Shown: positions 2,258 through 63,244 of the stretch, in pieces
How the letters are laid out: each line of letters begins with the position of its first letter
Numbering within the stretch: the stretch's first letter is position 1
Assembly (NCBI RefSeq): GCF_036365525.1
Contig: NC_090377.1
Location: 101,908,923 to 101,972,922, forward strand
DNA length: 64,000 nucleotides
Direction: 5' to 3'
DNA from: Heterodontus francisci
Lineage: Eukaryota
Program-made: the position numbers and the translations under genes
The notes under the pieces: generated by a model
The model's input: only the letters and a program-made list of their open reading frames with translations
Database searches by the model: none
Told to the model about the DNA's origin: nothing

Positions 2258-2394
2258 CAGAAAGTTTAGGGATCCTTAATTTGAACAGGGGTACTACTGT
2301 GTTTTAATTGGCAAGCAGAGTCAGCTTAGCTCAGTTGGCAACTCACCTGAATCAAAAGGTTGTACATTCAAGGGCCAAACAGTTTACCTTGTAT

Positions 2395-2600
2395 AAAAGC
2401 AAAATACTGCAGATGCTGGAAATCTGAAATAAAAACAAGAAATGCTGGAACCACTCAGCAGGTCTGGCAGCAGAGTTAACGTTTCGGGTCAGTAACCCTT
2501 CTTTGGAACTGGCAAATATCAGAAATGTAAAAGGTTATAAGCAAGTGAGGCAGGGGTGGGACAAGAGATAACAAAGGAGAAGGTGTAGATTGGACAAGGC
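2395..2600 (-). mobile_element. Penelope-like terminal repeat fragment (degenerate hammerhead core)
   Basis: aaaagcaaaatactgcagatgctggaaatctgaaataaaa family motif; core reads CCAAAGA...GAAACGTT on the minus strand. Confidence 0.75.
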
Positions 2601-11300: not shown

Positions 11301-14300
11301 ACTAATCGCTCAGCTTAGATCAACTAATTTAACAGACTGGTGAACAAAACTGATTCCCTTGGTTCATGGAATTTCTTTGGAACTAAAATGAAACAGAATT
11401 TTAAAAAAGTAAACAAACATCACTTACGGTCAATCCTATCTGGTACGACACATGTATCATCATAGTACAGTCGTGGATCTCTCTCATAAGTAAAACCTGG
11501 GAAAAAGGATAAAAATGGATATTTTCAATTGACTAATCAATTAGCAATAGACTTATTTCCATTGCCAACCTACTCAGATTCAGTCAGAAAATTCTTTATG
11601 TTGAATGTGAGCTTGTTCATTTAAAAAAAAAAATTTCTTAAGTTGACATTGGCATGACATAAATCCAATAATTCCTAATGTGTTAGAGGAGATTTAGTGA
11701 ATTACAGGCAGATACAGATTATATATCAGTCCTGGAACATTTGACAAGTTTGCAGTGGGGCTGATAAGTGGCAAATGCAGTTCAACGCAAAGAGGTGCAA
11801 AATAGTAGAATTTGTTGAAGGAAATAGGTTAAGTGAGTGGGCAAAAATTTGGCAAATGGAGTATAATGTGGGAAAATGTGAAATTATCCATTTTGGCTGG
11901 AAGAATAAAAAAGCAGTATATTATCAAAATGGAGAGAGATTGCAGAGTTCTGAGATGCAGTGGGATCTGGGTGTCCTAATACATGAATCGCATAAGGTTA
12001 GTATGCGGGTTCAGCATGTAATTGGTAAAGCTCGTAGAATATCATTTACTGCAAGGGGAATTGAATACAAAAGTAGGAAGGTTATGCTTCAGTTATACAG
12101 GGCATTGGTGAGATCACATCTGGAGTACTATGTACAGTATTGGTCTCCTTATTTAAGGAAGGATGTAAATGTGTTGGAAGCAGTTCAGAGAAGGTTTACT
12201 AGACTAATACCTGGAATGGACAGGTTGTCTTAGGTGGAAAGGTTGGACAGGCTAGGCTTGTATCCACTGGAGTTTAGATGAGCAAGAGGCGACTTGATTG
12301 AAATATATAAGATCCTGAGGGGTCTTGACAGAGTGGATGTGGAAAGGCGGTTTCCTCTAGTGGGAGAATCTAGAACTAGGAATCGCCATTTCAAAATAAG
12401 GGGTTGCCCGTTTAAGACAGATGAGGAGAATTTTTTTTCTCAGAGGGTTGAGTGTCTTTGGAACTCTCTTCCTCCAAAGGTGGTGGAAGCAGAGTCTTTG
12501 AATATTTTAAAGGCAAAGGTGGATAGATTCTTGATAAGCAGGAATTTGGAGTAATCAGTTCAGCCATGAACATATTGAATGGCAGAGCGGGCTCAAGGGG
12601 CCTACACCTGCTCCTAATTTGTACGTTCATATATATGTTGGACATATACCCTAAATGACAAGATCCTTAACAGAGTAGAAGAGCAAAAAGATCTAGAAGC
12701 ACAAATTTGTAGACTTTTTTTTTTAAAAAAAGCTAATACTGTCGGTAGAAAAGGCCTTAACAATGGAATTCAAATTGTGGAATATTGGAATACAAAAGGA
12801 GGCGATATTTAGAGTTACACTGACTTCCTGCATTAGTGTAAAATGGGTGTTAGGGAATTGCCAGCCCGTTTTACATCCCTCGATTTTTATTTCTATAATT
12901 ACTGAACAACTAGCACCAGCACGGAGATTATGTTCCAAATGGCCTCCTGTTGTGCTGTGGTTTCTTTTGATTACATTCTATGATCTACTAACACTGAATA
13001 AATTTTAAACATTGCTTAGCATTCTAAATTGGACAGCCTAAAGATAAAGAGCAATAATACAGAGCAAAATACCGGGAAGCTGGAAGCAATCTGAAATAAA
13101 CAAAGTAAACGCTAGAACTACTCAGAAGGTCTGGCAGCATCTGCAGACAGAGAAGCAGAGTTAATGTTTCAGGTCTTTCATCAGAACAGGTCAAAGTTAT
13201 AAATGTAATAGGTTTTTAAGCAGGTGATATGGGGAGGGAGGGACAAAGAACAAAAAAAGAAAGGCCTTTGATAGGGTGGAAGACAGCCGAGAGTTGGGCA
13301 GGGCCTATAGGAGTGGCAATGAGGCAAGAAACAAAAACAAAAAGATGCGCCAAAAGCAGATGTGCCGAAACATGCAATGAAAAGGAAACGAAATGGGGTA
13401 GAGATTGAATTTGATATTGCCTGAAATTGTTGAACTCAATATTAAGTCCAGAAAGCTGTAAAGTTTCCATTTGAAAAATGAGGTGTTATTCCTTGAGCTT
13501 GTGTTGAGCTTCACTGGAACACTGCAGTAGGCAGAGGTCAGAGAGGTCAATGTGAAAGCAAAGTGGAAGATTAAAATAAGGGACCTAAAGCTAGTGTTCA
13601 CACTTGTGGACTGAATGGAGGTATTCTGCAAAGCGGTCACCCAATCTGCTTTTGGCTTCGACAGTGCAGAACAGATCACATTATAAACAGCGAATACAGT
13701 ATAGTAAATTGAAAGAAGTCCACGTAAATCACTGTTTCACCTGGAAGGAGTGTTTGGGGCTTTGAATGGTGAGGTGATGCCTTGGAAAGGTGACGTAGGA
13801 AAGGGAGGGGGTGATTGAAGAGTGGACCAGAGTATTGCAGAGGGAACAGACTCTACAGAATGCTGAAAGGGGAGGGGAAGATGTGTTCGGTATTGCCGCT
13901 CCCACAGGCCCAGAAAAACTTTTTCCTGTCTTCCACCCTATCACAGACCTTCCCTTTTGTTCTTTTCTCTAACTCCCCCTTTCCCTGCCTCTGTATTTGC
14001 AAAACCTCAACTTTTTCCAGTTTTGATGAAAGGTCATCGACATGAAACATTCAACTCTGCCTCTCACCACAGATCCTGCCAGACCTGCCGAGTATTTCCA
14101 GCATTTTCTGCCTTTATTTCAGGTGGCACAGTGGTTAGCACCGCAGCCTCACAGCTCCAGGGACCCGGGTTCGATTCTGGGTACTGTCTGTGCGGAGTTT
14201 GCAAGTTCTCCCTGTGTCTGCGTGGGTTTTGCGCCGGGTGCTCCGGTTTCCTCCCACATCCAAAGACTTGCAGGTGATAGGTAAATTGGCCGTTGTAAAT

Positions 14301-26300: not shown

Positions 26301-29300
26301 GATAGAGAGGAGAGGGGTTCAGGGAGGCAATTCTAGAGCTTAGGCCCTTAACAACTAAAGGCACAACCACCAATGGTGGGAAGGAAAGAGGCAGAAGGAC
26401 CAGAGGCCAGAATTGGAGTTCTTCGAGGTTTGGAGGAGAATACAGAGGTAAGGAGAGGGAGGCCACAGACTGTTTTGAACAAAAGGATAAAAGGTTTTAA
26501 AATGGAAGCATTTGGGGACTGGGAGCCATTGTAGGTCAGCAAGCACAGGGATGAAGAGCGAGCAGGACTTGGTGCGAGTCAGGATACGGGCAGCAGAGTT
26601 TTAAGTTTATGGGAGACTGGCTAGGAAAGTATTAGAATAGTTGAGTCTCGAGGTAACCAGAGCAAGGCCGACAGTTTCCACAGCACGTGGGCTGAGGCAG
26701 GGGCAGGCAGTGTTACAGAGGTGGAACTAAGGGGTCAATATTAAGCCAGAGCTCCTATCCCGTTTGGAATAGATTAATCTCGGAACACAAACAAAAAAGA
26801 TTTTGCATTTAATTCTGCATTCAGTTTTGTCGCTGTATGATTACCATGCAATTAAATTACTAAATCAGCATAACTTCTGAATCACTTACATTGGACAGCA
26901 GCTCAGAATGGAAACCCCTTGCAGTTTCTGGTTGAAGATATGCTTTAAAAGGGTACTCAACTTTTTGATACCACTGTGCTCACAGGCAATTACATAACTG
27001 ATATGTTCACTGTAACTCAAGTTTCTATTGATTTCAGAAACCAAGTGCTGGATTTTAAGTAGGTGGCAGGGGCCCCACTCCTGGAGTTGAAAGAGGGAGC
27101 CAGTGGGACCTAGGGCTGCCATCCCTAGTAAGGCCCAGAGGGCCGGCAGCTCAGCACTGCCACTGCTAGCAGTGGCCACTGCTGGGACTGCATCTTGAGG
27201 ATGAGAGCACATCTATGGCCGTGCGCCCTCAAAGTCAGGTAAGAGGGCTCTGGGGGTGCCAGGGCCAGGCAGGCCCTAGTAGGGGTGGGGTGGGCCATTA
27301 AGCACAGACAACATCGCTGCCACGGGGTGGCCATTGCCATCAAGGGATCTCCTCTGTGGGCCAGAGTGCCCAAAAAGGAAGGCCCCTCCCCCAGGGGCTG
27401 CTGGGAGGCCAGAGGTAACATGGTAGCGAGCCTCCCATGCTATCTGCCACCTTCCCTGCCTCTGGCAAAATGGCACAGAGGTGGGATGATGACAGGTGTG
27501 TCACCCGACGCCTTCCTGCACCATTTTGCCAGCCTTCCCGGCTGTCCCCAAAGGGCTGGTAAAATTCAGCTCCAAGTGTTTGTAGCCAAGCCAAGGTTCT
27601 GAAGAAGGGTCACTGACCCGAAACGTTAACTCTGCTTCTCTTTCCACAGATGCTGCCAGACCTGCTGAGTGAATCCAGCATTTCTTGTTTTTGTTTCAGA
27701 TTTCCAGCATCCGCAGTATTTTGCTTTTATAAAACTAGACTTATTGCATGCACCAAAATCCCATTTTTACACCACAAAAAACATGAAGGTTTGTTAAGAC
27801 ATGACCTTGTATAATTTCATTTTTCTCCAGTGCTCCCTCTGCCCACTATAATGCACACACACACAAATTTATGTTCCGTTGACTGGCTAGGCAATAGCTG
27901 GAGTAAAGGGCTCTTCAGGAGGTTACAAGTGATATGTAGATAATGAGCTGAAGTGGCAAAAAATAAGTCTTCAAAAGCAAAAAAAAAACTTCAAAAGGCA
28001 GGGAGAAAATTATAAAATTCCATTCTTTAGTTGAGGAAAAAAAAAAAAAAAAAAAAAAAAAATCGCTCCTACTTTAGAAAGATTAACACAGCAGGAATAT
28101 GCTACCAGTGCATGACTTGAGCTGCACAGCATGAAAAATTAGTTTGTTAATAGTTTCGACAATGGTTTATTTTCAAGATTATATATATTACTGTCATTTT
28201 CTCACACTTTACTATTTCTTACACAGTTATACATATAGTATACAATTGCTGCGTTGAGGAAGTGTCAGATAACAACTAGAATATGTGAATCATATGGCTT
28301 GGTTCAAAAGAAAATGTATACCTCCCCTAGCCCAGGCTGTGCCTCCAGCCATATCAAATTATCAATAAAGCAGTGAACTAGACAGAGATGGCTATCACCC
28401 AAACCACAACAATGCTTTATCTGAAAGCTACAAGCTGGGTGGAATTTTTCTCCTCCTGCTTAAATATTGGCACAGTTCCAAGGCAATAACCTTAACTCTT
28501 CACCTACATTAACGATTAGCACAACCAAGAAGTGGCCATACACACACACCAGTACAAACATAAAAATCAGGACAGCTCTGGTGAGTCTGTGCATTCGATC
28601 AGCCTTTTGTTTTTCTACTGTTTAAACCAATGTTATCTGGCACCCAGAGGCTTCATAAAGAGCGCGGATGCATTAAACAAAATACTCCTCTCATACCAGT
28701 ATAAAGCAGGCTCTCCTGTCACACTACTAAACTCCTCAGTGCCACCATTCATGTATAATAAACATCTGTACTCTTTGTCTGGTCTCACTCACTGAAGCCC
28801 ATTTACCAGCACAAGCTTACTAGAGATATTGAGGGTGCAGAAAGATAGATAGGTTTCTATGAACATAAGAACATGATAGACATCAATTTCTAGAATACTG
28901 TGCAGCTGCTACCATTATAAATGGAGCTGGTATTGCACCATAAAAATCCTACAAGCTAATTAAAGCAGGTCTAGCTGCACTGAATTTGAACTTGGCACAG
29001 TTATACCAAAGGATCACTGAAGTCACATTTGGATGAACTGTAAAATATGTTCCAAGTGCATCCCGCAGCTCCTGAGGGATTGGAGGACTGTAAAGAGCAG
29101 TTTGACCTGCCACACCACTGCGGCAACAGGGAACAACTTTGGGAAACTGAATTATGACACATTAAGCTAATTTCATTGCAATCTGCTTTGTTACATGCTG
29201 CATTCAAACATATTTGGATAGCATCCAAAAGGAATCTATTTTAGCAATAAATGATTCCGCAGAACAGAATTCAGCCTCGCTAAGAATGTAACCTTCTCCT

Positions 29301-32300
29301 GCATTTTTTCAATATAAGGCTTTCTGGTAAATTTCTGCAAAATTTCATACTGTATCTCAAAAAAAATCATGGTTTACATGACAATTAGAGAACCTTTAAT
29401 AATCTCAATGCCTTGGCTGTTGAGTGGCAGCTTCCAGGGTGATCACCTAGTCTGATCAAAAAGCCCGGTTTACAATGCAAACACAATTGCCAATTCCAGT
29501 AGGAAGTGAAGCCAAAGCCAAGGCTGGCTATGTTTCACTAAAACTAATTAAACCGGAGAGCCACATGATGAATCAGAGCCAGACTCTCAAGGCGATGAGC
29601 TCTGGTTCAAATTGATGTTCAAACTTCCAAGTAGTCCTCAAGCAATGGGAATGAAATTTTGAGGGTCGGGACAGGAGGAGAGAAAAAAAACATTCTACAA
29701 AAGAGGAGAGCATTATACATAAAATTAAGCTTCAACTTAATTTCTGAAGAGGACATTTATGAAGATAACATTGTTACTTAGGTAAAATTTGCTTCAACGG
29801 CATATTATTCTGGAAGAATGCCATTTTATTTCAAGAAGTACTATCTATTGTTATACAGTATTTTGAATGACTTGGCCTCTGGGGTGGCAGTATTACTCCC
29901 TTGCTTATACAGGTTTTAGAAGGAAACTGAAGCGACGTCAAGGTACATCTCACCTAGTAGCGGCTGGGGAAGACAAGACATTTGCATCCCTGTTATTTTC
30001 GACAAAAGTGCATAGACATGCATATCCTCTACCATTGCTTTACTTGACAAATTTAAAATAGACTGAAAGAACAAATGTTCTCTGTGAAAGTCACTATTTA
30101 TAAGCAATCAGGGCTATTATTGCACTGTACAGGGTTTCTAGATTTCCCACAAAGGGACTGTGTTACATCAGTTCTTGGATCTGCTTTTAGACAAGGAACA
30201 CATGGACCACATTGATCAATACCACCTTCTCTAATCCCCACTCTGATGTTCAGCTTTCATCAGGTTATTTTACAAGACAGGAATTATTCTGCCAGGTGAT
30301 TTTCCTGGAGTACCACTTCCTCCTCCCTCCCTCCAGCAGTTCTCTCCTCATCCTTTATTCCCTGACACAGCAGGCAAGTCACCTTTTCAATTGTCTTCCC
30401 ACATGGCTGTGCAACTGTCGATTAGAAATTACACAGGAGAAATCATAGGCAATACCTGACAGCACAGCAGAGATCAGAAATTCTAACAGGGTCAAATCTA
30501 CTGCGCAGCGTCAGACCATAGCTCCATTCTACAATGCAGTTCCTATAAATAGCATGCTCACAAGTTCTCCAAGTGGTTGCAATATTAAGCAAGGATAATG
30601 GGTTAGGGTTAGGAAGCAAGTTCACCTGCAGTAATTTCTCATTCAGTGCACAAGTTTATATTTAAAAGGCAAAAAAAGCACATGTTCTGGATTTAAAGCA
30701 TTTAATGTTTGGGTTAATATAAACCAAAGCAAGATCCAGGTAGTTAAATGTTATACTTAAATTATTGTTAATTATGACAAGACAAAGTCAATAAGGAAAC
30801 ACGTTTGTCACAAAAATATTCTGCATTCACAATTAAGCAAAAATAGTAGAAAAAAAGCCCAATATTACTGCACAAAGTAGTAACTGCATTTCTCATCACA
30901 ACAGTGACTACACGTCATGAAGTACTTCATTGTAAAGTGATTTGGATGTTGCAAGGATGCGAAAGAAGCTATTTAAATGCAAGTCTTTTATCTTTTCATT
31001 TACTATTATGACTGGCCCATTGTGGTAAATGTCACCACAACAAAAGGAAACAAAAAATACATAGGAAGCTATCCAAAACCAGAGATGATCAGAATGACTA
31101 ATACCTAAAGCTGCCATCAGATAGTCAAGTTTCAGTCACTGTACTTGATCAGCCAGAGACATAAAGGTATCCAAAAACATTAGAGAACCACCTTTTTAGA
31201 AAAATGTTTAGGGTCCCCAGGGGGTTGATAAAATGAAGGTGGATTAAGTTGACATTTGTGGTCAGTTCAGGTCAGTAAGCCAAGAAAGAGTTAACCACCA
31301 CTCAGGGGGAACCATCATTAATCTGAACGGACATGACTGAAGGCCCCTGGCTTTGTACCAACCCCTCCTCCCAGCACCCAAAATATGAAGCTGGTCACGA
31401 GTCTACAATTTCCCAAGTAGCCAAAAATGAAAGGGCTAAAAGGAAAACAAATCCTATCCTCATTTTCCATCCAGTCTACTTATAGAAACATAGTCATTGA
31501 AACAGTTCATGGATCCCAGATAAATCTGCTGTCACCTTCTGATCGTATTATCCAACAGCAATTAAAAGGGAAAACAATTAAATGTAAATGTTGATAAACT
31601 GGTATGTCAGGATAGCAAGATGTGTAGAGAGAGAAAACGTTGGTACGTTTATAAAACACAGCTAAAATCAACGTGATGTTCTCCTCCTCAATCAAAAAGT
31701 TTATCTTAGTCATCCACACCAATATTCCTTCTGCTAGACACATGAATTTTGATTACCTGCTTTAGCAGTCAGGTGGCACAAAGATTCACCTGTTAGCACT
31801 ACTTTAAATCTACTCTCAAGACTCACCTTCTGATGGCAAACTGTAATGCCCAATGGCCCAGAAAGTCTGGAATTAACCAAGCTGCTCCCACCTACCCAGG
31901 AATAGCCACTCCGATCATGCTCCATTTTTGAACACTTCCCCTTCCAGGAGATGAAGACTTGCAAAATGTTTGGGCCTTTTTGCACAGGTGCAAACAGTTC
32001 CAAACTGTCATTACATATTAATATATTCAGAAGGATTTAGTGAAAAACATTAAGAAAAGGGATCAAATCAGAAATGTAAACTTTTAGAAATCGTCAATGT
32101 CCTATAATTATCATCTGACCAAATGCTTCTAGATGTGCAGTGTAAAGCTGGATTATCTCTAACTCTGCAAATAATTTGCATCTCACCAGTATCCGCAACA
32201 CACCAGGGATACTGCTATAACCTGATATAAAAGCAAAATACTGCTGATGCTGGAAAGCTGAAATAAAATCAAAAAGTGTTGGAAATACTCAGCAGGTCTG

Positions 32301-33480
32301 GCAGCATCTGTGGAGAGAGAAGCAAAGTTAACGTTTCAGGTCAGTGACCTTTCCTGAAATGTTAACTCTCCTTCTCTCTCCACAGATGCTACCAGACCTG
32401 CTGAGTATTTCTAGCACTTTTTGGTTTTATTACAGATATAACCAGTGCTTATAATACTCCAATGAAAAAAAAAAGTGAAAATAATTTAGTAACTGATGTT
32501 AAGAGAAGAGTGTCACATATTGTAATTTCAAATACAGCACTGCACCACAATTTTTCCAGGCCTGGGTTAGATATGATTACACTTTCGCTGAATGTTTAAA
32601 ATTAACACTGGCAAAATCCTAGCAAATTAACAGCAACCCTGAAAATAGGGGCTAAAATCAGAAAATTAAAGCTTCTAGTCAGCAAGGAAAAGGTTACCCC
32701 AGCACAGTATTTGCGCTAAGGTAGCCACCACATAAAATGAAATCATCAACCACCCACCCCCGTAAAAGGTACTTACAATTAACAGATTGGAAGTCTGGTA
32801 CAAACTGTTCATCATCTTCGGGAACCTGGGCTGCAGAAAAAAAAAGAGAAAAAAAATTATAATAATTAAAAACACCCCACTGTGCGCCCAGGTCAATCGC
32901 TTTTACATGAGTACATTTCAGCTCTGCGATTAAATATAAATATATAATTACAGTAAACGCTTCATAAGTGAAGAGGATGTTTAAAAAAAACAGAATGCAC
33001 TTACCCTCTGCTAGCCACGTTTCTTGCAACAGGCTTAAATCTTGAAAAAGTTCTGGAAAAGTGAAATAGATCATAAGTATGAACGAGACGGGTCACTGCA
33101 ACACGGGTGTGGGATTCTGAAAAGAGACGATTGAATCTGCACAGAGAACCTCAGTCATTTACCTTCCGAATCATGGGCAAGGTCCGTCTCCACAAATTTC
33201 CTTTTCCTGTCGTTCATTTGTCGGCCGCGCAGTTCTTCCACACGTGTTTTCTGAGAAAACCAAAATAAATCCACATCGAAAATTAGGTAAGAATTTTTGT
33301 GCAAAGAAGCTACTGCATTAAAACCTACCCCCCGTCCAAAACACAAATCGGTGCATTTTTCTTAATACACAAGAATGAATTCTAAATGTCATTTTTTTTT
33401 TAAAAAAGGAAAACGTTTGTTTTGCTCACCGATACATTGGGCACCATAAAAGGAACTTGCTGGTCGTAAAATCCGTCCAT
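5136..33480 (-). CDS. ETV5: ETS translocation variant 5 (ERM, PEA3 subfamily); spliced CDS of 12 coding exons, 1518 nt / ~505 aa
   Basis: Joined exons read [14 protein letters not shown]...[23 protein letters not shown]...QTFAVPR...IKQEPRDYC...[18 protein letters not shown]...[21 protein letters not shown]...EGFAY*. DLAHDSE, QTFAVPR, EPRDYC and the GFAY terminus match ETV5 as recalled, rather than ETV1/ETV4. Exon lengths 51,88,48,54,127,267,251,69,69,170,102,222 keep frame. Confidence 0.93.
5819..5920 (-). CDS. ETV5: ETV5 coding exon 11 ([34 protein letters not shown]; ETS recognition helix)
   Basis: ctacAG acceptor, AAG|GTGGG donor, 102 nt. Confidence 0.97.
8916..9085 (-). CDS. ETV5: ETV5 coding exon 10 (KVKQE...[11 protein letters not shown]...KLIEPEE; start of ETS domain)
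   Basis: ccaacAG acceptor, GAG|GTATG donor, 170 nt. Confidence 0.96.
9970..11210 (+). mobile_element. Young CR1 LINE, 5'-truncated (RT domain to 3' tail)
   Basis: ORFs 10202-10726 and 10732-11136: [31 protein letters not shown]; one frameshift near 10720; short tandem tail gactatgacta. Confidence 0.95.
11428..11496 (-). CDS. ETV5: ETV5 coding exon 9 ([23 protein letters not shown])
   Basis: Translated by hand; ttcccAG acceptor, GTAAGT donor, 69 nt. Confidence 0.92.
11735..12625 (+). mobile_element. CR1 LINE 3' fragment
   Basis: ORFs 11775-12233 and 12294-12554 ([29 protein letters not shown]). Confidence 0.92.
13060..14121 (-). mobile_element. Penelope-like retroelement remnant: GIY-YIG endonuclease fragment between inverted terminal repeats
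   Basis: Minus strand 13400-13770 translates [36 protein letters not shown]...GLNIEFNNF; terminal repeat present in opposite orientations at ~13060-13260 and ~13930-14121. Confidence 0.82.
14122..14425 (+). mobile_element. tRNA-derived V-SINE (HE1-like) with CR1-type tail
   Basis: A box TGGCACAGTGG, B box GGTTCGATTC, V-domain-like gtgcggagtttgc..gggtgctccggtttcctcccac, tail gggccgaagggcctgtttcagtgctgta. Confidence 0.88.
14595..14623 (+). repeat. Poly-G run (G6-T-G22)
   Basis: Direct reading. Confidence 0.95.
15786..15854 (-). CDS. ETV5: ETV5 coding exon 8 ([23 protein letters not shown])
   Basis: ctgtacAG acceptor, G|GTAAA donor, 69 nt. Confidence 0.92.
18346..18670 (-). mobile_element. 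Second HE1-like V-SINE copy with internal deletion and telomeric insertion
   Basis: Reverse complement closely matches 14122-14425. Confidence 0.88.
19448..19698 (-). CDS. ETV5: ETV5 coding exon 7 ([11 protein letters not shown]...FKQEYHD...[12 protein letters not shown])
   Basis: cctcaaAG acceptor, AG|GTTGG donor, 251 nt; ORF 19401-19715. Confidence 0.92.
21315..21581 (-). CDS. ETV5: ETV5 coding exon 6 ([16 protein letters not shown]...[13 protein letters not shown]...EHR)
   Basis: ttgcAG acceptor, AG|GTAGG donor, 267 nt; overlaps ORF 21311-21523. Confidence 0.92.
22175..22625 (+). mobile_element. tRNA-derived Deu-domain SINE (SacSINE1-like) with L2-type tail
   Basis: Head gtggctcagttggta...gggttcaagtccc; tail aaagcactttggagatgtc...gtgctatataaatgcaagt. 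Confidence 0.8.
23380..23506 (-). CDS. ETV5: ETV5 coding exon 5 ([18 protein letters not shown]...YGENCLYSY)
   Basis: Translated by hand (not in ORF track); atttcAG acceptor, AG|GTGCGC donor, 127 nt; IKRE SUMO-type motif. Confidence 0.92.
26120..26730 (-). mobile_element. L2 LINE 3' fragment
   Basis: Minus [13 protein letters not shown]...FK (LHWLP-like L2 motif) and L2 tail acttgcatttatgacacc. Confidence 0.8.
27045..27572. mobile_element. PIF/Harbinger-type MITE
   Basis: Imperfect TIRs GTGCTGGATTTTA / TAAAATTCAGCTC, 3-bp direct repeat CAA on both flanks, GC-rich interior related to 39153-39674. Confidence 0.7.
27595..27730 (+). mobile_element. Penelope-like terminal repeat with intact minimal hammerhead core
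   Basis: gtt-CTGAAGA-a-GGGTC-act-GACCC-GAAA-CGTT-aac followed by the family tail. Confidence 0.8.
27596..27630 (+). ncRNA. Minimal type I hammerhead ribozyme motif
   Basis: Conserved CUGANGA and GAAA boxes, 5-bp stem II, palindromic AACGTT in place of stem III, stem I GTT/AAC. Confidence 0.65.
28037..28062 (+). repeat. Poly-A run (A26)
   Basis: Direct reading. Confidence 0.95.
32228..32431. repeat. Fold-back (inverted) Penelope-derived repeat
   Basis: 79-bp arms 32262-32340 and 32353-32431, 72/79 complementary by manual comparison. Confidence 0.9.
32777..32830 (-). CDS. ETV5: ETV5 coding exon 4 ([21 protein letters not shown]1-degron-type EQFVPD)
   Basis: ttctgcAG acceptor, GTAAGT donor, 54 nt. 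Confidence 0.93.
33005..33052 (-). CDS. ETV5: ETV5 coding exon 3 ([16 protein letters not shown], acidic activation domain)
   Basis: ttttccAG acceptor, GTAAGT donor, 48 nt. Confidence 0.94.
33163..33250 (-). CDS. ETV5: ETV5 coding exon 2 ([29 protein letters not shown])
   Basis: tctcAG acceptor, G|GTAAAT donor, 88 nt. Confidence 0.93.
33430..33480 (-). CDS. ETV5: ETV5 coding exon 1 ([17 protein letters not shown]); exon extends 5' as UTR to an acceptor at 33595
   Basis: ATG at 33480 in strong context (acaaaATGG); donor G|GTGAGC at 33429 (alternative GTATCG donor at 33435); upstream acceptor ttctctcgcctctcttAG at 33596-33597. Confidence 0.9.
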
Positions 33481-45131: not shown

Positions 45132-45167
45132 AGTATTCAAGATGCAGTCTGACCAAAGAATGACTGT

Positions 45168-45266
45168 TCCGAAGAAGGGTCGCTGACCCGAAACGTTAAC
45201 TCTGCTTCTCTTTCCACAGATGCTGCCAGACCTGCTGAGTGATTCCAGCATTTCTTGTTTTTGTGT
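45168..45266 (+). mobile_element. 99-bp Penelope-derived hammerhead unit flanked by a 14-bp direct repeat
   Basis: CAAAGAATGACTGT at 45154-45167 and 45267-45280; insert begins at tCCGAAGA-a-GGGTC..GACCC-GAAACGTT. Confidence 0.8.
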
Positions 45267-45725
45267 CAAAGAATGACTGTGCCTGACTTATAGTCTACTA
45301 TTCTGGTTATGTAGTTCAACATTGCTTTGGTTTGTTGACCTTTGCATGTCATTGGCTCGACACGTTGAGTCTACTAAGGCTCCTAGGTGTCTTTCAACTT
45401 ATTTCTTAGCTTTTTCAACACTATTAATAAAGTATGCATGTTACCTATTTTTCCTTCCTATGTGCAATAGTTTCATTATTGGCCAACTCATATTTTGTTT
45501 CTGGGCTTCCTCTTTTTATTTTGTAGCCCCTCCAAGTTTGATATCATCTGGAAATTTAACCAATTTGCATTGAGTTTCTGAATCCAAGTCATCGATGTTA
45601 ATTATAAACAATGGTGGTGCCAAAACTGAGTCCTGCAGCAACCCACTCAGTATTTCTTCTTACCTGACATTAATCCCCCTAACTAGTACCTGTTGTTTGC
45701 TAACCTTTAGCCAGTTTCCATTCCC

Positions 45726-47922
45726 TGATTATTTCAGGGGTAATGCCATCCTCCCCAGGGACTTTTGCACTGGCGAGAGAATCAATGGCATCACTGAGTT
45801 CCGATTTTGTTGGCTGTTTGTCCAGCTTATCCATGACTGGCAGAGACTGGGCTGCATTGAGGGCGGTCTCAGTGACAACATTTTCCCTGGAGTACAGTTC
45901 TAGGTAGTGCTCCACCCAGCGGTCTATTTGCTTGCATTGGTCAGTGATTGTGTCCCTGATTTAGACTTGAGGGGGGCGATCTTCCTGATGGTTGGCCTAA
46001 AAGCTCTCTTAATGCCATCATACATTCCTCTGATGTTTCCTGTGTCGGAGGCCAGCTGAATACGACTGCATAGGTGTTGCCAGTAGTCATTTGCGCAGCG
46101 CCTTGCTGTTCTTTGTGCAGCGCTTCTGGCTACTTTAAGTGCTACAGATGTTAGCTTGCTGGGGTCTTTCTTGTGGTTCAACAAAAGCCCCTGGGAAGGA
46201 CGGCATTACCCCCGAAATAATCAAGAGTGCCAAGCCTGCTATACTCTCAGCACTCTACGAACTGCTTTTCCTGTGCTGGGATGAGGGAGCAGTACCACAG
46301 GACATGCGCGATGCCAATATCATCACCCTCTATAAGAACGAGGGTGACCGCGGTGACCGCAACAACTACCTGTGGAATCTCCCTGCTCAGCATAGTGGGG
46401 AAAGTCTTTGCTCGAGTCACTTTAAACAGGCTCCAGAAGCTGGCTGAGCATGTCGACCCTGAGGCACATTGTGGCTTTCGAGCAGAGAGATCCACCATTG
46501 ACATGTTGTTCTCCCTTCGCGAGCTACAGGAGAAATGCCACGAACAACAGATGCCCCTCTACGTTGCTTTCATAGATCTCACCAAAGCCTTTGACCTCGT
46601 CAGCAGACGTGGTCTCTTCAGACTACTAGCAAAGATCTGATGTCCACCAAAGCTACTAAGTATCATCACCTCATTCCATGAGGATATGAAAGGCACAATT
46701 AAGGATAGCAGTGCCTCATCAGACCCCTTTCCTATCCTGAGTGGCGTGAAACAGGGCTGTGTTCTCGCACCTACACTGTTTGGGATCTTCTTCTCCCTGC
46801 TGCTCTCACACGCATTCAGGTCTTCAGAAGAAGGAATTTTCCTCCACACAAGATCAGGTGGCAGGTTGTTCAACCTTGCCCGTCTAAGAGCGAAGACCAA
46901 AGTACGGAAAGTCCTCATCAGGGAACTCCTCTTTGCTGACGATGCTGCATTAACATCCCACACTGAAGAGTGTCTGCAGAGACTCATCGACAGGATTGTG
47001 GCTGCCTGCAACGAATTTGGCCTAACCATCAGCCTCAAGAAAACAAACATCATGGGACAGGACGTCAGAAATGCTCCATCCATCAATATCGGCAAACATG
47101 GTGGTTCAGGAGTTCACCTACCTAGGCTCAACTATCACCAGTAACCTGTCTCTCGATGCAGAAATCAACAAGCACATGGGAAAGGCGTCCACCGCTATGT
47201 CCAGACTGGCCAAGAGAGCGTGGGAAAATAGCACACTGACACGGAACACAAAAGTCCGAGTGTATCAAGGCTGTGTCCTCAGTACCTTGCTCTACGGCAG
47301 CGAGGCCTGGTCGACGTATGTGAGCCAAGAACGACGTCGCAATTCATTCCATTTTCACTGCCTCCGGAGAATCCTTGGCATCAGGTGGCATGACCGTATT
47401 TCCAACACAGAAGTCCTTGAGGCGGCCAACATCCCCAGCATATACACCCTACTGAGCCAGCAGTGCTTGAGGTGGCTTGGCCATGTGAGCCGCATGGAAG
47501 ATGGCAGGATCCCCAAGGACGCATTGTACAGCGCGCTCGTCACTGGCATCAGACCCACCGGCCGTCCATGTCTTCACTTTAAAGACGTCTGCAAACACGA
47601 CATGAAGTCCTGTGACATTGATCACAAGTCGTGGGAGTCAGTTGCCAGTGATCGTCAGAGCTGGCGGACAGCCATAAAGGTGGCGCTAAAGTGTGGCGAG
47701 TCGAAGAGACTTCGCTGTTGGCAGGAAAAAAGACAGAAGTGCAAGGGGAGAGCCAACTGTGTAACAGCCCCGACAACCAATTTTATCTGCAGCACCTGTG
47801 GAAGAGTCTGTCACTCTAGAATTAGCCTTTATAGCCACTCCAGGCGCTGCTCCACAAACCACTGACCATCTCCAGGCACTTACTCATTGTCTCTCGAGAC
47901 AAGGAGGCCAAAGAAAGAAAGA
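45726..47922 (+). mobile_element. RTE-clade LINE, 5'-truncated with inverted 5' segment (45726-46183 minus; 46184-47922 plus)
   Basis: RT motifs FIDLTKAFD, GVKQGCVLAP, LLFADD; C-terminal CSTCGRVCHSRISLYSH; (GAAA)n tail; both segments match 61090-63243. Confidence 0.93.
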
Positions 47923-55440: not shown

Positions 55441-56054
55441 TCACTTTCTTGGGTCGCTCTCCATACACATCCACCTTCCCCCTCCCATCCCTACTTCCTT
55501 CTGTGTCAGCCCCTGGAAATCTCAACTGTCTAGCTATTGGCATTCCGTTCACCACAATATTTCTGCACCTACTGATCTGCTCAGCCATACCCTCAGCTCC
55601 ATATTTAATGTCCTAGTCCCAATTAATTTCATTACTCTTTCTCACCCTGGCCACTTCCCCTGGCTGGCCCTCATCTCTGCACCCTTAAGACTTTAATGGA
55701 TAAGGTGGACAACTGAATTCGCCAGAGCTGGTTGGACTAAATAAAGCACTTTTGGGCCCTCGTCTGTAAAAACAGCTCACTATTCTAGGATCATCCTGGA
55801 AAGCAAAGATAACCCCCATCTTCTTTTCTCTACTGCAAACAGTCTTCTTAAACCCCTCTTATCAAAGTCACAAATGACATCCCATGTGACTACGAAAAAG
55901 GTAAACTATCCCTCCTCATCCTTTTTGATCTGTCTGCAGCCTTTGACACAGAAGACCACACCATCCATCTCCAACACCTCTCTGCCATTGCCCAGCTGTG
56001 TGGGACTGTGCTCGCCTGGTTCCATTTTTATCTATTCAGTCGTAGTCAGAGAAA

Positions 56055-56480
56055 TGTTAATTTTATTTTAGTTTGTTTAGTTTGTTTCTACTGTGTGCCT
56101 ACCCACTTTTTTTTCATGTTTGTGCTTGGGGCCTTGGCTGTTCAATTTTCTGTCTTTTAACACCCTCTCTGAACTAACACTTTGTCTTTCACCATACCAT
56201 TAACATACCGTTTGCCTTTGCTCCATAACCTTCTGGTCAGTTATTCTCTGTGACCTTGTCCTATCGACACCTTCTCTTTTGTTATCTCTTGCCCTACCCC
56301 CGCTTTACTTGCTTAAAACCTATTACATTTCTAGCCTCTGGCAGTTCTGATGAAAGGTCACTGACCTGAAACGTTAACTCTGCTTCTTTCTCCCCAGATG
56401 CTGCCAGACCTGCTGAGTATTTCCAGCATTTCTTGTTTTTATTTCAGATTTCCAGCATCTGCAGTATTTTGCTTTTATCT
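56055..56480 (+). mobile_element. Penelope-like 3' region and terminal repeat with intact hammerhead core
   Basis: Pyrimidine-rich 3' region followed by CTGATGA...GAAACGTT and the family tail. Confidence 0.8.
56343..56379 (+). ncRNA. Minimal type I hammerhead ribozyme motif
   Basis: AGTT-CTGATGA-a-AGGTC-act-GACCT-GAAA-CG-TT-AACT. Confidence 0.7.
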
Positions 56481-57769
56481 TTGACCAAGCTTTTGGCCAC
56501 CTGCCCTAATATATTCTAAGGTGGCTAGGTGGCAAATTTTGCTTTATAATGCATCTGTGAAGTATCTTGGGCCATTTTATTACGTTAAAGGCACTATGCA
56601 AACACAAGTTTTTTTTTAATCAAGTAACTTTTGAATGTCCATATATACATCACCTGCTCACGGATGCTCAGTTTGGTTCTCACCAGGAGCTCAGCTCCAG
56701 ATCGCATTACAGTCTTGGTCTAAACATGAACAAAAGAGTTGAATTCCAGTGGTGGAGTGAGAGTGGTGGTCCTTGGCATTATGTAATTGCAGATGTTGGA
56801 AGCCAATCCTACCAGCCCAAGGACATCGCTGCACGAGTTTCACAGGGTAGTATCCTAGACCCAAACATCTTCAACTGCTTCAATGACCTTCCCTCCATTA
56901 TAAGGTCAGAAGTGGGACTATTCACTGATGATTGCACAATGTTCAGTTCCATTTGCAATTCCTCAGTTAATGAAGTAGTCCATGCCCACATGCAGCAAGA
57001 CCTGAATAACATCCAGGCTTGGCCTGATAAGTGGTAAGTAACATTCACGCCACACAAGTGCCAAGCCATGACCATCTCCAGCAAGACAGGGTCTTAATGC
57101 CCCACCTGTACCAGCCACATAAATACTGTGGTTACAAAAGCAGGTCAGAGGCAGGATATAATCTGAGTAACTCTGTTCCTGACACCCTAAAGCTTTTCCA
57201 CCAGCTATAAGGCTCAAGTCAGGAGTGTAATGAAATTCTCTCCACTTGCCTGGATGAGTGCAACTCTAACAACACTCAAGCTCAACACTATCCAAGACAA
57301 AGCAGCCCGCTTGATTAGCATCTCATCCACCACCTTAAACATTTACTTCCTCCACAAACAGTGAACAATGGCTGCAGTTTGTACCAACTACAAGATGCAC
57401 AGCAGCAACTCACCAAGGCTTCTTCAACAGCACCTCCCAAACCTGTGACTTCTACCATCTAGAAAGGCAAGGCAGCTGGCATATAGGAACTCCACCATCT
57501 CCAAGTCCCTCTCCTAGACAAACCATCCTAACTTGGAAATATATCACAATTCCTTATTGTTGCTGGGTCAAAATCCTGGAATTTCCTACCTAACAGCACT
57601 GTGGGAGCACTTACACTCACACAGACTGCAGCGGTTCAAGAAGGCAGTTCATTACCACCTTCTCAAGGGCAATTAGAGACGGGCAGTAAATGCTGACCTT
57701 GCCTGCATCCTGCAAATGAATAATTTTTTTTTTAAATGAGAGCCTATTTTGTATTGGTCCTACAAACAT

Positions 57770-59471: not shown

Positions 59472-62400
59472 TTCAAGGTAAAAATGTCACTGATACTTTT
59501 TCTTGACTTTTATTCACACAATTACCATAACAAAATCCGGAGCGGAACCCCGTAGGCGGTCATGTGTCACCTTTGGCATGTTTCCGGCAGTTCCTGCAGC
59601 CATACTGGTGCCAAACGTCGTGTCCTGCACTCCTTTGGACCCCACCAGAAAGGCCGAGAGGGGGGTTTTGACGACTGGGCAACTCTCAACCTCCATAAAT
59701 TTGCCCAGGCATGCGCCATGGAGAGGTCACTCCATAGTTGCCTCACAGCGACTGAAACAACACGGAAGGCAGCAGTTACGGGTTATAAGTCCAGATAAAT
59801 TGGCGTAGAAACTGGGCGCCACGGGTTGCCTTTGTCGGTGGGAGAGGTCATTGCACCTCACTTGACAGCTACCGCCCGCCTCAAACCGGGCAGCCCCCGG
59901 TCAATAAGGTTCTGTCCCGCCACAGTCTGCCTGCTTCAATGGGTGCTTGGAGCTCAGGGTCATTGCCCGAAAGGTGGACTGATACACCGCACCAAACAAC
60001 ATGAAAAAAGGAAAGAAGGTACCAGCCCTTCGGTTTGCAAGCTGGAACGTCAGAACTATGTGTCCTGGCCTGTCGGAAGACCTTACACAAATCAACGATT
60101 CTCGGAAGACCGCCATCATTAACAACGAGCTCAGTAGACTCAATGTGGACATTGCAGCACTTCAGGAGACTCGCCTCCCCGCGAGTGGCTCTCTAGCAGA
60201 GCAAGACTACACCTTCTTCTGGCAGGGCAGGGATCCTGAAGAACCAAGACAGCATGGAGTGGGCTTCGCCATCAGAAACTCCTTGCTCAGCATGATAGAG
60301 CCTCCCTCAAATGGCTCGGAACGCATACTGTCCATCCGACTGCTCACCACCTCTGGTCCAGTACACCTACTCAGCATCTATGCTCCAACACTCTGTTCCG
60401 CACCTGAAGCTAAAGACCAGTTCTATGAACAACTCCATAACATCATTAGCAGCATCCCCAACACCGAACACCTATTCCTGCTGGGGGACTTTAATGCCAG
60501 GGTTGGGGCCGACCATGACTCATGGCCCTCCTGCCTTGGGCGCTATGGCGTTGGAAGGATGAATGAGAACGGGCAGAGACTGCTTGAGTTGTGTACCTAT
60601 CATAACCTCTGCATCACCAACTCGTTCTTTCACACTAAACCCTGTCACCAGGTTTCATGGAGGCACCCAAGATCACGTCGTTGGCACCAGCTAGACCTCA
60701 TTGTCACAAGGCGAGCCGCCTTAAACAGTGTTCAAATCACACGCAGCTTCCACAGTGCGGACTGCGACACCGACCACTCCCTGGTGTGCAGCAAGGTTAG
60801 ACTCAGACCAAAGAAGTTGCATCATTCCAAGCAGAAGGGCCACCCGCGCATCAACACGAGCAGAATTTCTCACCCACAGCTGTTACAAAAATTTCTAAAT
60901 TCACTTGTAACAGCCCTTCAAAACACTCCCACAGGGGATGCTGAGACCAAGTGGGCCCACATCAGAGACGCCATCTATGAGTCAGCTTTGACCACCTACG
61001 GCAAAAGTGCGAAGAGAAATGCAGACTGGTTTCAATCTCATAATGAAGAGCTGGAACCTGTCATAGCCGCTAAGCGCATTGCACTTTTGAACTACAAGAA
61101 AGCCCCCAGCGATTTAACATCCGCAGCACTTAAAGCAGCCAGAAGTACTGCACAAAGAACAGCTAGGCGTTGCGCAAACGACTACTGGCAACACCTATGC
61201 AGCCATATTCAGCTGGCCTCAGACACCGGAAACATCAGAGGAATGTATGATGGCATGAAGAGAGCTCTTGGGCCAACCATCAAGAAGATCACCCCCCTCA
61301 AATCTAAATCGGGGGACATAATCACTGACCAACGCAAACAGATGGACCGCTGAGTTGAGCACTACCTAGAACTGTACTCCAGGGAGAATGCTGTCACTGA
61401 GACTGCCCTCAATGCAGCCCAGCCTCTACCAGTCATGGATGAGCTGGACATACAGCCAACCAAATCGGAACTCAGTGATGCCATTGATTCCCTAGCCAGC
61501 GGAAAAGCCCCTGGGAAGGACAGCATTACCCCTGAAATAATCAAGAGTGCCAAGCCTGCTATACTCTCAGCACTACATGAACTGCTATGCCTGTGCTGGG
61601 ACGAGGGAGCAGTACCCCAGGACATGCGCGATGCCAACATCATCACCCTCTATAAAAACAAAGGTGACCGCGGTGACTGCAACAACTACCGTGGAATCTC
61701 CCTGCTCAGCATAGTGGGGAAAGTCTTTGCTCGAGTCGCTCTGAACAGGCTCCAGAAGCTGGCCGAGCGCGTCTACCCTGAGGCACAGTGTGGCTTTCGT
61801 GCAGAGAGATCGACTATTGACATGCTGTTCTCCCTTCGTCAGATACAGGAGAAATGCCGTGAACAACAGATGCCCCTCTACATTGCTTTCATTGATCTCA
61901 CCAAAGCCTTTGACCTCGTCAGCAGACGTGGTCTCTTCAGACTACTAGAAAAGATCGGATGTCCACCAAAGCTACTAAGTATCATCACCTCATTCCATGA
62001 CAATATGAAAGGCACAATTCAACATGGTGGCTCCTCATCAGAGCCCTTTCCTATCCTGAGTGGTGTGAAACAGGGCTGTGTTCTCGCACCCACACTTTTT
62101 GGGATTTTCTTCTCCCTGCTGCTTTCACATGCGTTCAAATCCTCTGAAGAAGGAATTTTCCTCCACACAAGATCAGGGGGCAGGTTGTTCAACCTTGCCC
62201 GTCTAAGAGCGAAGTCCAAAGTACGGAAAGTCCTCATCAGAGAACTCCTCTTTGCTGACGATGCTGCTTTAACATCTCACACTGAAGAATGCCTGCAGAG
62301 TCTCATCGACAGGTTTGCGTCTGCCTGCAATGAATTTGGCCTAACCATCAGCCTCAAGAAAACGAACATCATGGGGCAGGATGTCAGAAATGCTCCATCC

Positions 62401-63244
62401 ATCAATATTGGCGACCACGCTCTGGAAGTGGTTCAAGAGTTCACCTACCTAGGCTCAACTATCACCAGTAACCTGTCTCTAGATGCAGAAATCAACAAGC
62501 GCATGGGTAAGGCTTCCACTGCTATGTTCAGACTGGCCAAGAGAGTGTGGGAAAATGGCGCACTGACACGGAACACAAAAGTCCGAGTGTATCAGGCCTG
62601 TGTCCTCAGTACCTTGCTCTACGGCAGCGAGGCCTGGACAACGTATGCCAGCCAAGAGCGACGTCTCAATTCATTCCATCTTCGCTGCCTTCGGAGAATA
62701 CTTGGCATCAGGTGGCAGGACTATATCTCCAACACAGAAGTCCTTGAAGCGGCCAACATCCCCAGCTTATACACACTACTGAGTCAGCGGCGCTTGAGAT
62801 GGCTTGGCCATGTGAGCCGCATGGAAGATGGCAGGATCCCCAAAGACACATTGTACAGCGAGCTCGCCACTGGTATCAGACCCACCGGCCGTCCATGTCT
62901 CCGTTATAAAGACGTCTGCAAACGCGACATGAAATCGTGTGACATTGATCACAAGTCGTGGGAGTCAGTTGCCAGCATTCGCCAGAGCTGGCGGGCAGCC
63001 ATAAAGACAGGGCTAAATTGTGGCGAGTCGAAGAGACTTAGTAGTTGGCAGGAAAAAAGACAGAGGCGCAAGGGGAGAGCCAACTGTGCAACAGCCCCAA
63101 CAAACAAATTTCTCTGCAGCACCTGTGGAGGAGCCTGTCACTCCAGAATTGGCCTTTATAGCCACTCCAGGCGCTGCTTCACAAACCACTGACCACCTCC
63201 AGGCGCGTATCCATTGTCTCTCGAGATAAGGAGGCCCAAAAGAA
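59472..63244 (+). mobile_element. Near full-length RTE-clade non-LTR retrotransposon
   Basis: Single long ORF2-type frame, short 3' UTR ending ggcccaaaagaa; 5' boundary approximate. Confidence 0.93.
60001..63192 (+). pseudogene. RTE polyprotein (APE endonuclease + RT + C-terminal Cys/His finger), 1063 codons with one premature stop at 61351-61353
   Basis: WNVRT, LQETR, LGDFNARVG, TDHSLV; FIDLTKAFD, GVKQGCVLAP, LLFADD, YLGS; CSTCGGACHSRIGLYSH; ORFs 60001-61353 and 61435-63192 share a frame. Confidence 0.93.

Follow-up and report, generated by a model that had tools for sequence, protein, structure and literature searches.

Minimal hammerhead ribozymes (min-HHRs) are known from Penelope-like elements (PLEs) of metazoans, where they lie in the pseudo-LTR (pLTR), carry an extra nucleotide after A9, and are palindromic at positions 15.2-16.2 (Cervera and De la Pena 2014, PMC4209133). 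In the sections of that paper used here, the monomers are described as inactive and the dimers as weak. The Poseidon element PAc of Anolis carolinensis has a ribozyme that is protein-assisted and dispensable for insertion, and the cited part of that study reports no RNA-seq reads ending at the cut; the preferred 3' ends of PAc are start sites of reverse transcription (Frangieh et al. 2024, PMC11167929). Neptune and Nematis proteins have a CX2-5CxxC linker before the endonuclease (EN), and the same account, as far as its cited sections go, calls the role of the hammerhead in endonuclease-bearing Penelope elements unclear (Craig et al. 2021, PMC8557442). One chondrichthyan genome is reported to contain non-LTR retrozymes, according to the part of the preprint cited here (Li et al. 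2026, bioRxiv 10.64898/2026.07.22.740005). Our literature search found no description of the family studied here; Lunse et al. 2017 may contain shark or U4C examples.

The copy studied here lies in Heterodontus francisci, in a 64-kb stretch of DNA that we call the window and whose numbering is used below. It represents a known class in a new host group, the cartilaginous fish, and the locus itself is probably inert. Its features are as follows.

56055 to 56478, plus strand: solo pLTR with its tail, from a putative Neptune-type PLE, without an attached open reading frame (ORF); placed by similarity, with boundaries from comparisons
56313 to 56318, plus strand: TATA-like box reading TTAAAA, whose counterpart in the young subfamily is TATAAT; stem I begins 29-30 nt downstream
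56341 to 56347, plus strand: initiator-like site, in which A56343 is the first base of stem I and the putative start
56343 to 56379, plus strand: minimal type I hammerhead, with a 4-bp stem I, core CUGAUGA, extra A, 5-bp stem II, GAAA, CG palindrome, and U16.1-U17
between 56375 and 56376, plus strand: hammerhead cut site predicted from the sequence
56443 to 56478, plus strand: "tail" of ~36 nt between two preferred 3' ends, placed from the 3' ends of 100 young copies

The letters, stems, and palindrome of the motif are as the sequence-only reading had described them: AGTT (56343-56346), CTGATGA (56347-56353), A (56354), AGGTC (56355-56359), ACT, and GACCT (56363-56367), followed by GAAA (56368-56371), CG, TT (56374-56375), and AACT (56376-56379), with the palindrome AACGTT at 56370-56375. 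Both sequence and descriptor place the core CUGANGA...GAAA...NUH here, and the extra nucleotide between 9 and 10.1 is A56354, in keeping with the class consensus CUGANGAH. Helix I has 4 bp (3-5 in the class), helix II has 5 bp, helix III is absent, and the palindromic 15.2-16.2 is CG. The closing pair of stem II, 10.1-11.1, is A-U, and the class consensus is G-C (>80%, a feature outside the published descriptor). This A-U pair had been overlooked earlier, as had a second palindrome, GTTAAC (56373-56378), which straddles the cut site and is predicted to form the stronger duplex (-6.2 vs -4.1 kcal/mol). A minimal-hammerhead descriptor matched twice in the window, at 27599 and 56347. On these grounds the 37-nt motif is a genuine minimal type I hammerhead of the known Penelope class, for which cleavage is predicted. 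When folded from 56343, stem II is predicted to pair with a probability of 0.97-1.0 and stem I only weakly (0.2-0.4), and in a read-through context the stem II probability of the focal copy is ~0.7. Predicted co-folding of two 37-mers prefers cross-pairing of stem II over the hammerhead dimer, and competing pairings are predicted that include the palindrome across the cut site.

The motif shares with the published min-HHRs (PMC4209133) the CUGANGA-H core, stem II, GAAA-N/N-U-H, the palindromic 15.2-16.2, the short helix I, the U-rich upstream flank, the pLTR location, and the occurrence of mostly solitary truncated copies, whereas the 56 representatives in the cited sections include no cartilaginous fish. 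Scored by eye, the focal A10.1-U11.1 pair is shared with at least 2 of those 56. The GUU triplet and extra A had been considered uncommon, a view that the published motifs do not bear out: by eye, Fig. S3 of that paper has U17 in 24/56, the ending C-G-U-U is the commonest (15/56, vs 13 for C-G-U-C), and the extra nucleotide belongs to the consensus.

Across 432 aligned columns the focal sequence (56055-56478) shares 79.6% identity with the pLTR that lies between tandem 924-aa ORFs at genomic locus L042, and over 231 bp it is 94-96% identical to its best genomic copies. Longer genomic copies continue upstream into a same-strand reading frame, and a protein search of the genome found many 924-aa open frames, some of them arrayed at a period of 3.2-3.3 kb. 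In 20 fetched loci the repeat alternates with successive ORFs, and the hammerhead lies in the pLTR on the ORF strand. The 924-aa protein matches Pfam RVT_1 (E 6e-6) and, C-terminally, a GIY-YIG domain (E 0.002), both under the curated cut-off, has 832 relatives at E<=1e-30, and carries a CX4CX2C linker between reverse transcriptase (RT) and EN, which reads CNRRRCNTC in P0001. The setting in the pLTR of an RT/GIY-YIG element supports the earlier placement in a Penelope-type repeat, and its attribution to a shark agrees with the nearest named protein relative, from the bamboo shark Chiloscyllium punctatum (71% identity). The C-terminal GIY-YIG, the linker, the tandem pLTRs, the inverted 5'-truncated partners, and the 30-40-bp tail are all as described for the EN+ Neptune clade in the cited sections of PMC8557442. 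The element would be a Neptune-type EN+ PLE, an assignment made from the linker motif, which is common to Nematis, and not from a tree.

Like PAc, the Heterodontus element has a tandem pLTR-ORF layout and two internal 3' ends that bound a tail. In PAc, as described in the part of PMC11167929 used here, the ORF begins inside the hammerhead and the tail falls within the ORF, whereas here the first ATG comes ~140-175 nt after the hammerhead, and the two 3' ends also precede this ATG. Non-LTR retrozymes are likewise pLTR-derived and carry a type I hammerhead, but they form head-to-tail tandem units, whereas neither the focal copy nor the stubs are so arranged, being dispersed or inverted (bioRxiv 10.64898/2026.07.22.740005, in part). 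A retrozyme identity was rejected, since it requires at least 2 consecutive tandem hammerhead units and the focal copy is solitary, the closest intact motif on its strand of the window being 28.7 kb away. Because it has neither a nearby partner motif nor an ORF, the focal copy is likely inert. The assembled contigs of 4 runs leave its unique flanks essentially uncovered, which is uninformative on transcription. The copy is flanked by two parts of a LINE-like repeat (55913-56053 and 56478-56562, compared with L076:7540-8604), and this one comparison suggests that it occupies a place where ~850 bp of the host repeat is absent.

To see where copies begin and end, we used a young-specific 29-mer located 28-56 nt past the cut site, which has 17,404 exact genomic matches. 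The regions of the first 100 matches on contig C1 gave 108 copies, or 100 after removal of 8 duplicates; two of these have common flanks, and selection was only by the downstream 29-mer. Relative to the cut site, 36 of the 100 copies start at -36 to -29, 11 at -28 to -6, and none at -5 to +5; another 6 start beyond +5, 7 at -99 to -37, and 40 are longer. The commonest single 5' end is -31, the base after AG (11/100). In a second sample of 30 loci, retrieved through a downstream 60-mer, 21 start at -24 to -38 and none at the cut. The 3' ends of the 100 young copies fall at +59 to +79 (53 copies) and +102 to +113 (44 copies) from the cut site, with 3 longer, and the ~36 nt between these two clusters corresponds to the known PLE tail. 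Direct repeats of at least 7 nt flank 19 of 25 solo stubs on both sides, vs 2.9% of 2052 mismatched pairs. Since no ends fall at the cut and many fall at the edge of stem I, the copies were made from RNA that retained the whole hammerhead, and the template of reverse transcription was uncut, probably capped RNA. For PAc, the cited sections of PMC11167929 likewise have uncut RNA used in insertion.

A genome-wide filter returned 4,670 matches, and in the first 100, scored approximately by eye, there was no peak of 5' ends at the cut site: 1 was a clean start at the cut and 2 more had a mismatch, compared with ~12 at -3, 8 at -2, 4 at -1, and 3-5 each at +3 to +7, at least one third of the matches being indels or duplications. 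Cleaved RNA had been entertained as a template when 6 BLAST copies seemed to start near the cut; at least 3 of these abut other inserted repeats, and the idea was rejected, the unbiased samples having 0/100 and 0/30 starts at the cut. Other repeats inserted at TTAA in the 3' half of the hammerhead (window 52939 and L077 near 1870) mimic a start near the cut. Exact loss of the GTT cleavage triplet with intact flanks was seen in 3 of the first 100 filtered matches, including L253, and could reflect slippage, or trimming and rejoining.

Sequence around the 5' ends resembles a promoter. An AT box occurs at the same -29/-30 spacing in aligned long copies of both subfamilies. The initiator consensus is YYANWYY, and position -33 from the cut, the A of a match to it, is the first base of stem I; the focal copy has G at -2 of this site, where most relatives have C or T. 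Because copy 5' ends pile up there, together with TATA-like and initiator-like sequence, A56343 would be the transcription start of a putative pLTR promoter, its function being read from the letters and the copy ends. Extra Gs beside the 5' ends, as a cap might leave, lie mostly within target duplications. In Drosophila Penelope the start is also in the pLTR, but the promoter is TATA-less (PMC2377424, in its cited part). Initiator-like sequence stands just 5' of the core in ~7 of 56 published motifs, e.g., Ciona, Nematostella 2, and Xenopus 1 (PMC4209133, Fig. S3; by eye, with no control).

Our preferred model, to which we give a probability of roughly 0.72, is that of a solo-pLTR hammerhead from a family whose RNA would start at stem I, be cut slowly in a dimer- or protein-dependent manner, and be copied uncut into stubs. 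In intact elements, transcription from the TATA-like/initiator-like pLTR promoter would begin at the first base of stem I, so that the capped RNA would open with the 37-nt hammerhead. Cutting would be slow and would need either dimerisation via the ACGU palindrome or the element protein, and it would probably serve to process tandem read-through RNA. The element protein would prime reverse transcription internally, as in PAc (PMC11167929, cited in part), with RT beginning ~100 or 137 nt past the start and running to the 5' end of uncut RNA. This would explain why many 100-137-bp stubs contain the whole motif; priming near the 5' end would yield these stubs, and priming at the downstream pLTR would yield long or truncated copies like the focal one. 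Of its parts, the motif, its setting in the element, the tandem ORFs, the boundaries of the stubs, their target-site duplications, and the subfamily variants were observed, and to these we add by inference the start site, dimer cleavage, and inertness. Against it weigh a start deduced from sequence, the runs being assembled contigs; stem II covariation confined to ~two inherited changes at one pair; predicted co-folding that prefers stem II cross-pairing; the lack of a G10.1-C11.1 pair in the focal copy; and the U4C core change of the youngest subfamily, which is hard to square with selection on cleavage.

The 5' ends that accumulate at stem I could instead mark splicing at an acceptor formed by the AG of AGUU, some other cut in the RNA, or a stall of RT, which we regard as unlikely but worth weighing. 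The splice acceptor is the main rival among these: the young pLTR carries a U-rich tract ending in CAG at the edge of stem I, the most frequent 5' end directly follows an AG, and the Drosophila virilis Penelope intron stops at helix I according to the cited part of PMC4209133. We found no support for it, however, since by eye no stub carries an upstream exon, the flanks being target duplications or inverted partners, and a mere 10 nt separate the putative branch point and the AG. An intron with a branch-point-like TTAAC at the cut site and two pyrimidine tracts ending in AG was dropped as an idea, GT..AG being present in none of the 15 joints listed, of 38. A stall of RT is disfavoured by the predicted fold, which has no stable hairpin ending at -33.

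The fresher points are that many copies begin at the first bases of the motif and not at the predicted cut, and that the youngest intact family carries U4C. The flagged focal copy is itself ordinary, and the value lies in a natural series that the genome provides, with three or four subfamilies differing at position 4, N7, and pair 10.1-11.1. This series includes intact tandem copies and >17,000 young copies, the ends of which preserve a record of the RNA template, so that the role of the hammerhead is testable. Across 259 copies from all the loci collected, a biased sample, pair 10.1-11.1 is G-C in 153, G.U in 68, A-U in 29, A.C in 1, and other in 8. A degenerate pattern has 62,886 matches genome-wide, and by eye the first 100 gave G-C 61, G.U 28, A-U 8, A.C 2, and G.A 1, with C at position 4 in 59, U in 38, and G in 3. 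Mean mismatches to the class majority over 53 positions were 4.7 for A10.1 (n=30), 2.2 for G10.1 with U7 (n=33), 1.6 for U4 with A7 (n=35), and 0.7 for C4 (n=141), which points to a likely order of subfamilies from A-U through G.U to G-C, the youngest carrying U4C. Covariation of stem II across copies, which had been proposed as a check, was found at pair 10.1-11.1, where the change is compensatory in form yet amounts to ~two inherited events, and not at the other four pairs, which are invariant at the subfamily level. With G10.1 in 15 of the 19 closest relatives of the focal copy, its A-U pair may be a private change.

The core CCGAAGA (U4C) was counted by eye in 44 of 46 full-core young-type motifs of ORF-bearing loci L042-L061, beside intact or near-intact ORFs, and occurs in 74 of 89 motifs of the young sample. 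This C4 departs from the class core and is found in 0/56 motifs of the cited sections of PMC4209133, whose search demanded U4. CpG decay was rejected as the origin of the canonical U4 in older copies: copies with N7=U (n=60) read TG in 47, CA in 0, and CG in 1 at positions 4-5, while the palindrome CpG decays both ways (CA 9, TG 7). Young copies read CG in 132, TG in 35, and CA in 8. These counts indicate that U4 in older copies is inherited and that CpG decay accounts for part of the TG in young copies.

One reading of U4C, which we also judge unlikely, is that catalysis is relaxed and the motif is largely vestigial or non-catalytic, kept through overlap with a promoter or protein-binding 5' leader. 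U4C "considerably decreases activity in vitro" (PMC3088659) and is predicted to weaken cutting in this youngest, ORF-bearing subfamily. In read-through RNA of the young subfamily, moreover, an 11-bp upstream complement (L042:4917-4955) is predicted to bury the core, leaving stem II a probability of 0.01, and Naiad elements spread without hammerheads (PMC8557442, in its cited part). Against this, U4C is compatible with viroid infectivity (PMC3088659), the young subfamily retains the consensus G-C closing pair, and the other recurrent changes are limited to N7 and loop 2. Alternatively, and in our view rather improbably, the hammerhead could be a cap-proximal, dimer-dependent self-decapping brake on the element that the dominant subfamily escaped via U4C and the masking hairpin, driving its expansion.

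The sequence-only proposal was that the repeat family is a genome-wide reservoir of self-cleaving RNA motifs; it is weighed here in the form that dispersed copies would cut host transcripts. BLAST finds 14 copies of the repeat in the window, close to the dozen estimated earlier, among them the following.

27596 to 27730, plus strand: 135-bp stub that begins at stem I, with a canonical core and G-C closing pair; the other descriptor-intact motif of the window
45166 to 45268, plus strand: 103-bp stub of the young subfamily, with a U4C core
2393 to 2600, minus strand: truncated copy of the pLTR that has lost an internal segment and whose core is damaged, with CA at positions 4-5
32227 to 32437, both strands: head-to-head inverted stub pair, with the joint inside the hammerhead
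13063 to 14122, both strands: older copy, consisting of a minus-strand pLTR without stem II, an ORF C-terminal fragment at 13420-13872 (tblastn 58% identity, E 7e-37), and an inverted pLTR

Forty 10-kb stretches at round coordinates held 21 matches in 400 kb, which extrapolates to ~3 x 10^5 copies genome-wide. Contigs from runs presumed to be RNA are rich in family sequence, and by eye 34 of the first 100 of the 62,886 pattern matches combine a canonical core with a paired stem II, which gives an estimated ~2-3 x 10^4 intact-looking motifs, most of them solitary. The descriptor, however, is passed by only 2/14 window copies and 2/21 copies in the sampled 400 kb, and adjacent stubs are often head-to-head and would fold as hairpins. 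Published activity requires dimers or element protein (PMC4209133 and PMC11167929, in their cited parts), cutting is poor even as dimers, with Xenopus dimer constructs cleaved in 1/9, and no pile-up of genomic 5' ends is seen at the cut site. A reservoir that cuts host transcripts is not supported and is highly improbable. That the motif is a chance likeness is already largely refuted: although Rfam matched no hammerhead family (at gathering score over the whole window, or at E<=10 for 56000-56700) and the folding z-score is only -1.4, the descriptor is passed by 0/100 dinucleotide shuffles, and the motif sits in a PLE pLTR with all consensus features except one in agreement with the cited sections of PMC4209133.

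Head-to-head stub pairs (L151, L167, L184, L190, L199, and window 32227-32437) usually join a short (+66) and a long (+104) 3' end and have their joint at or within the hammerhead, where a few additional bases are sometimes present. A stem II deletion that brings the core boxes close is common to window 13167-13184 (minus strand) and L003 near 2037 (plus strand), and may be a minor subfamily or recurrent slippage. A 2.2-kb repeat occurs twice in the window (45726-47915 and 61087-63244) at ~90% identity, one copy with a 5' inversion. Finally, a CTGATGA...GAAA motif of another kind, in which stem II has 2 bp and the palindrome is AGCT, occurs at L043 near 7448 (minus strand) and may belong to a second family that carries hammerheads.
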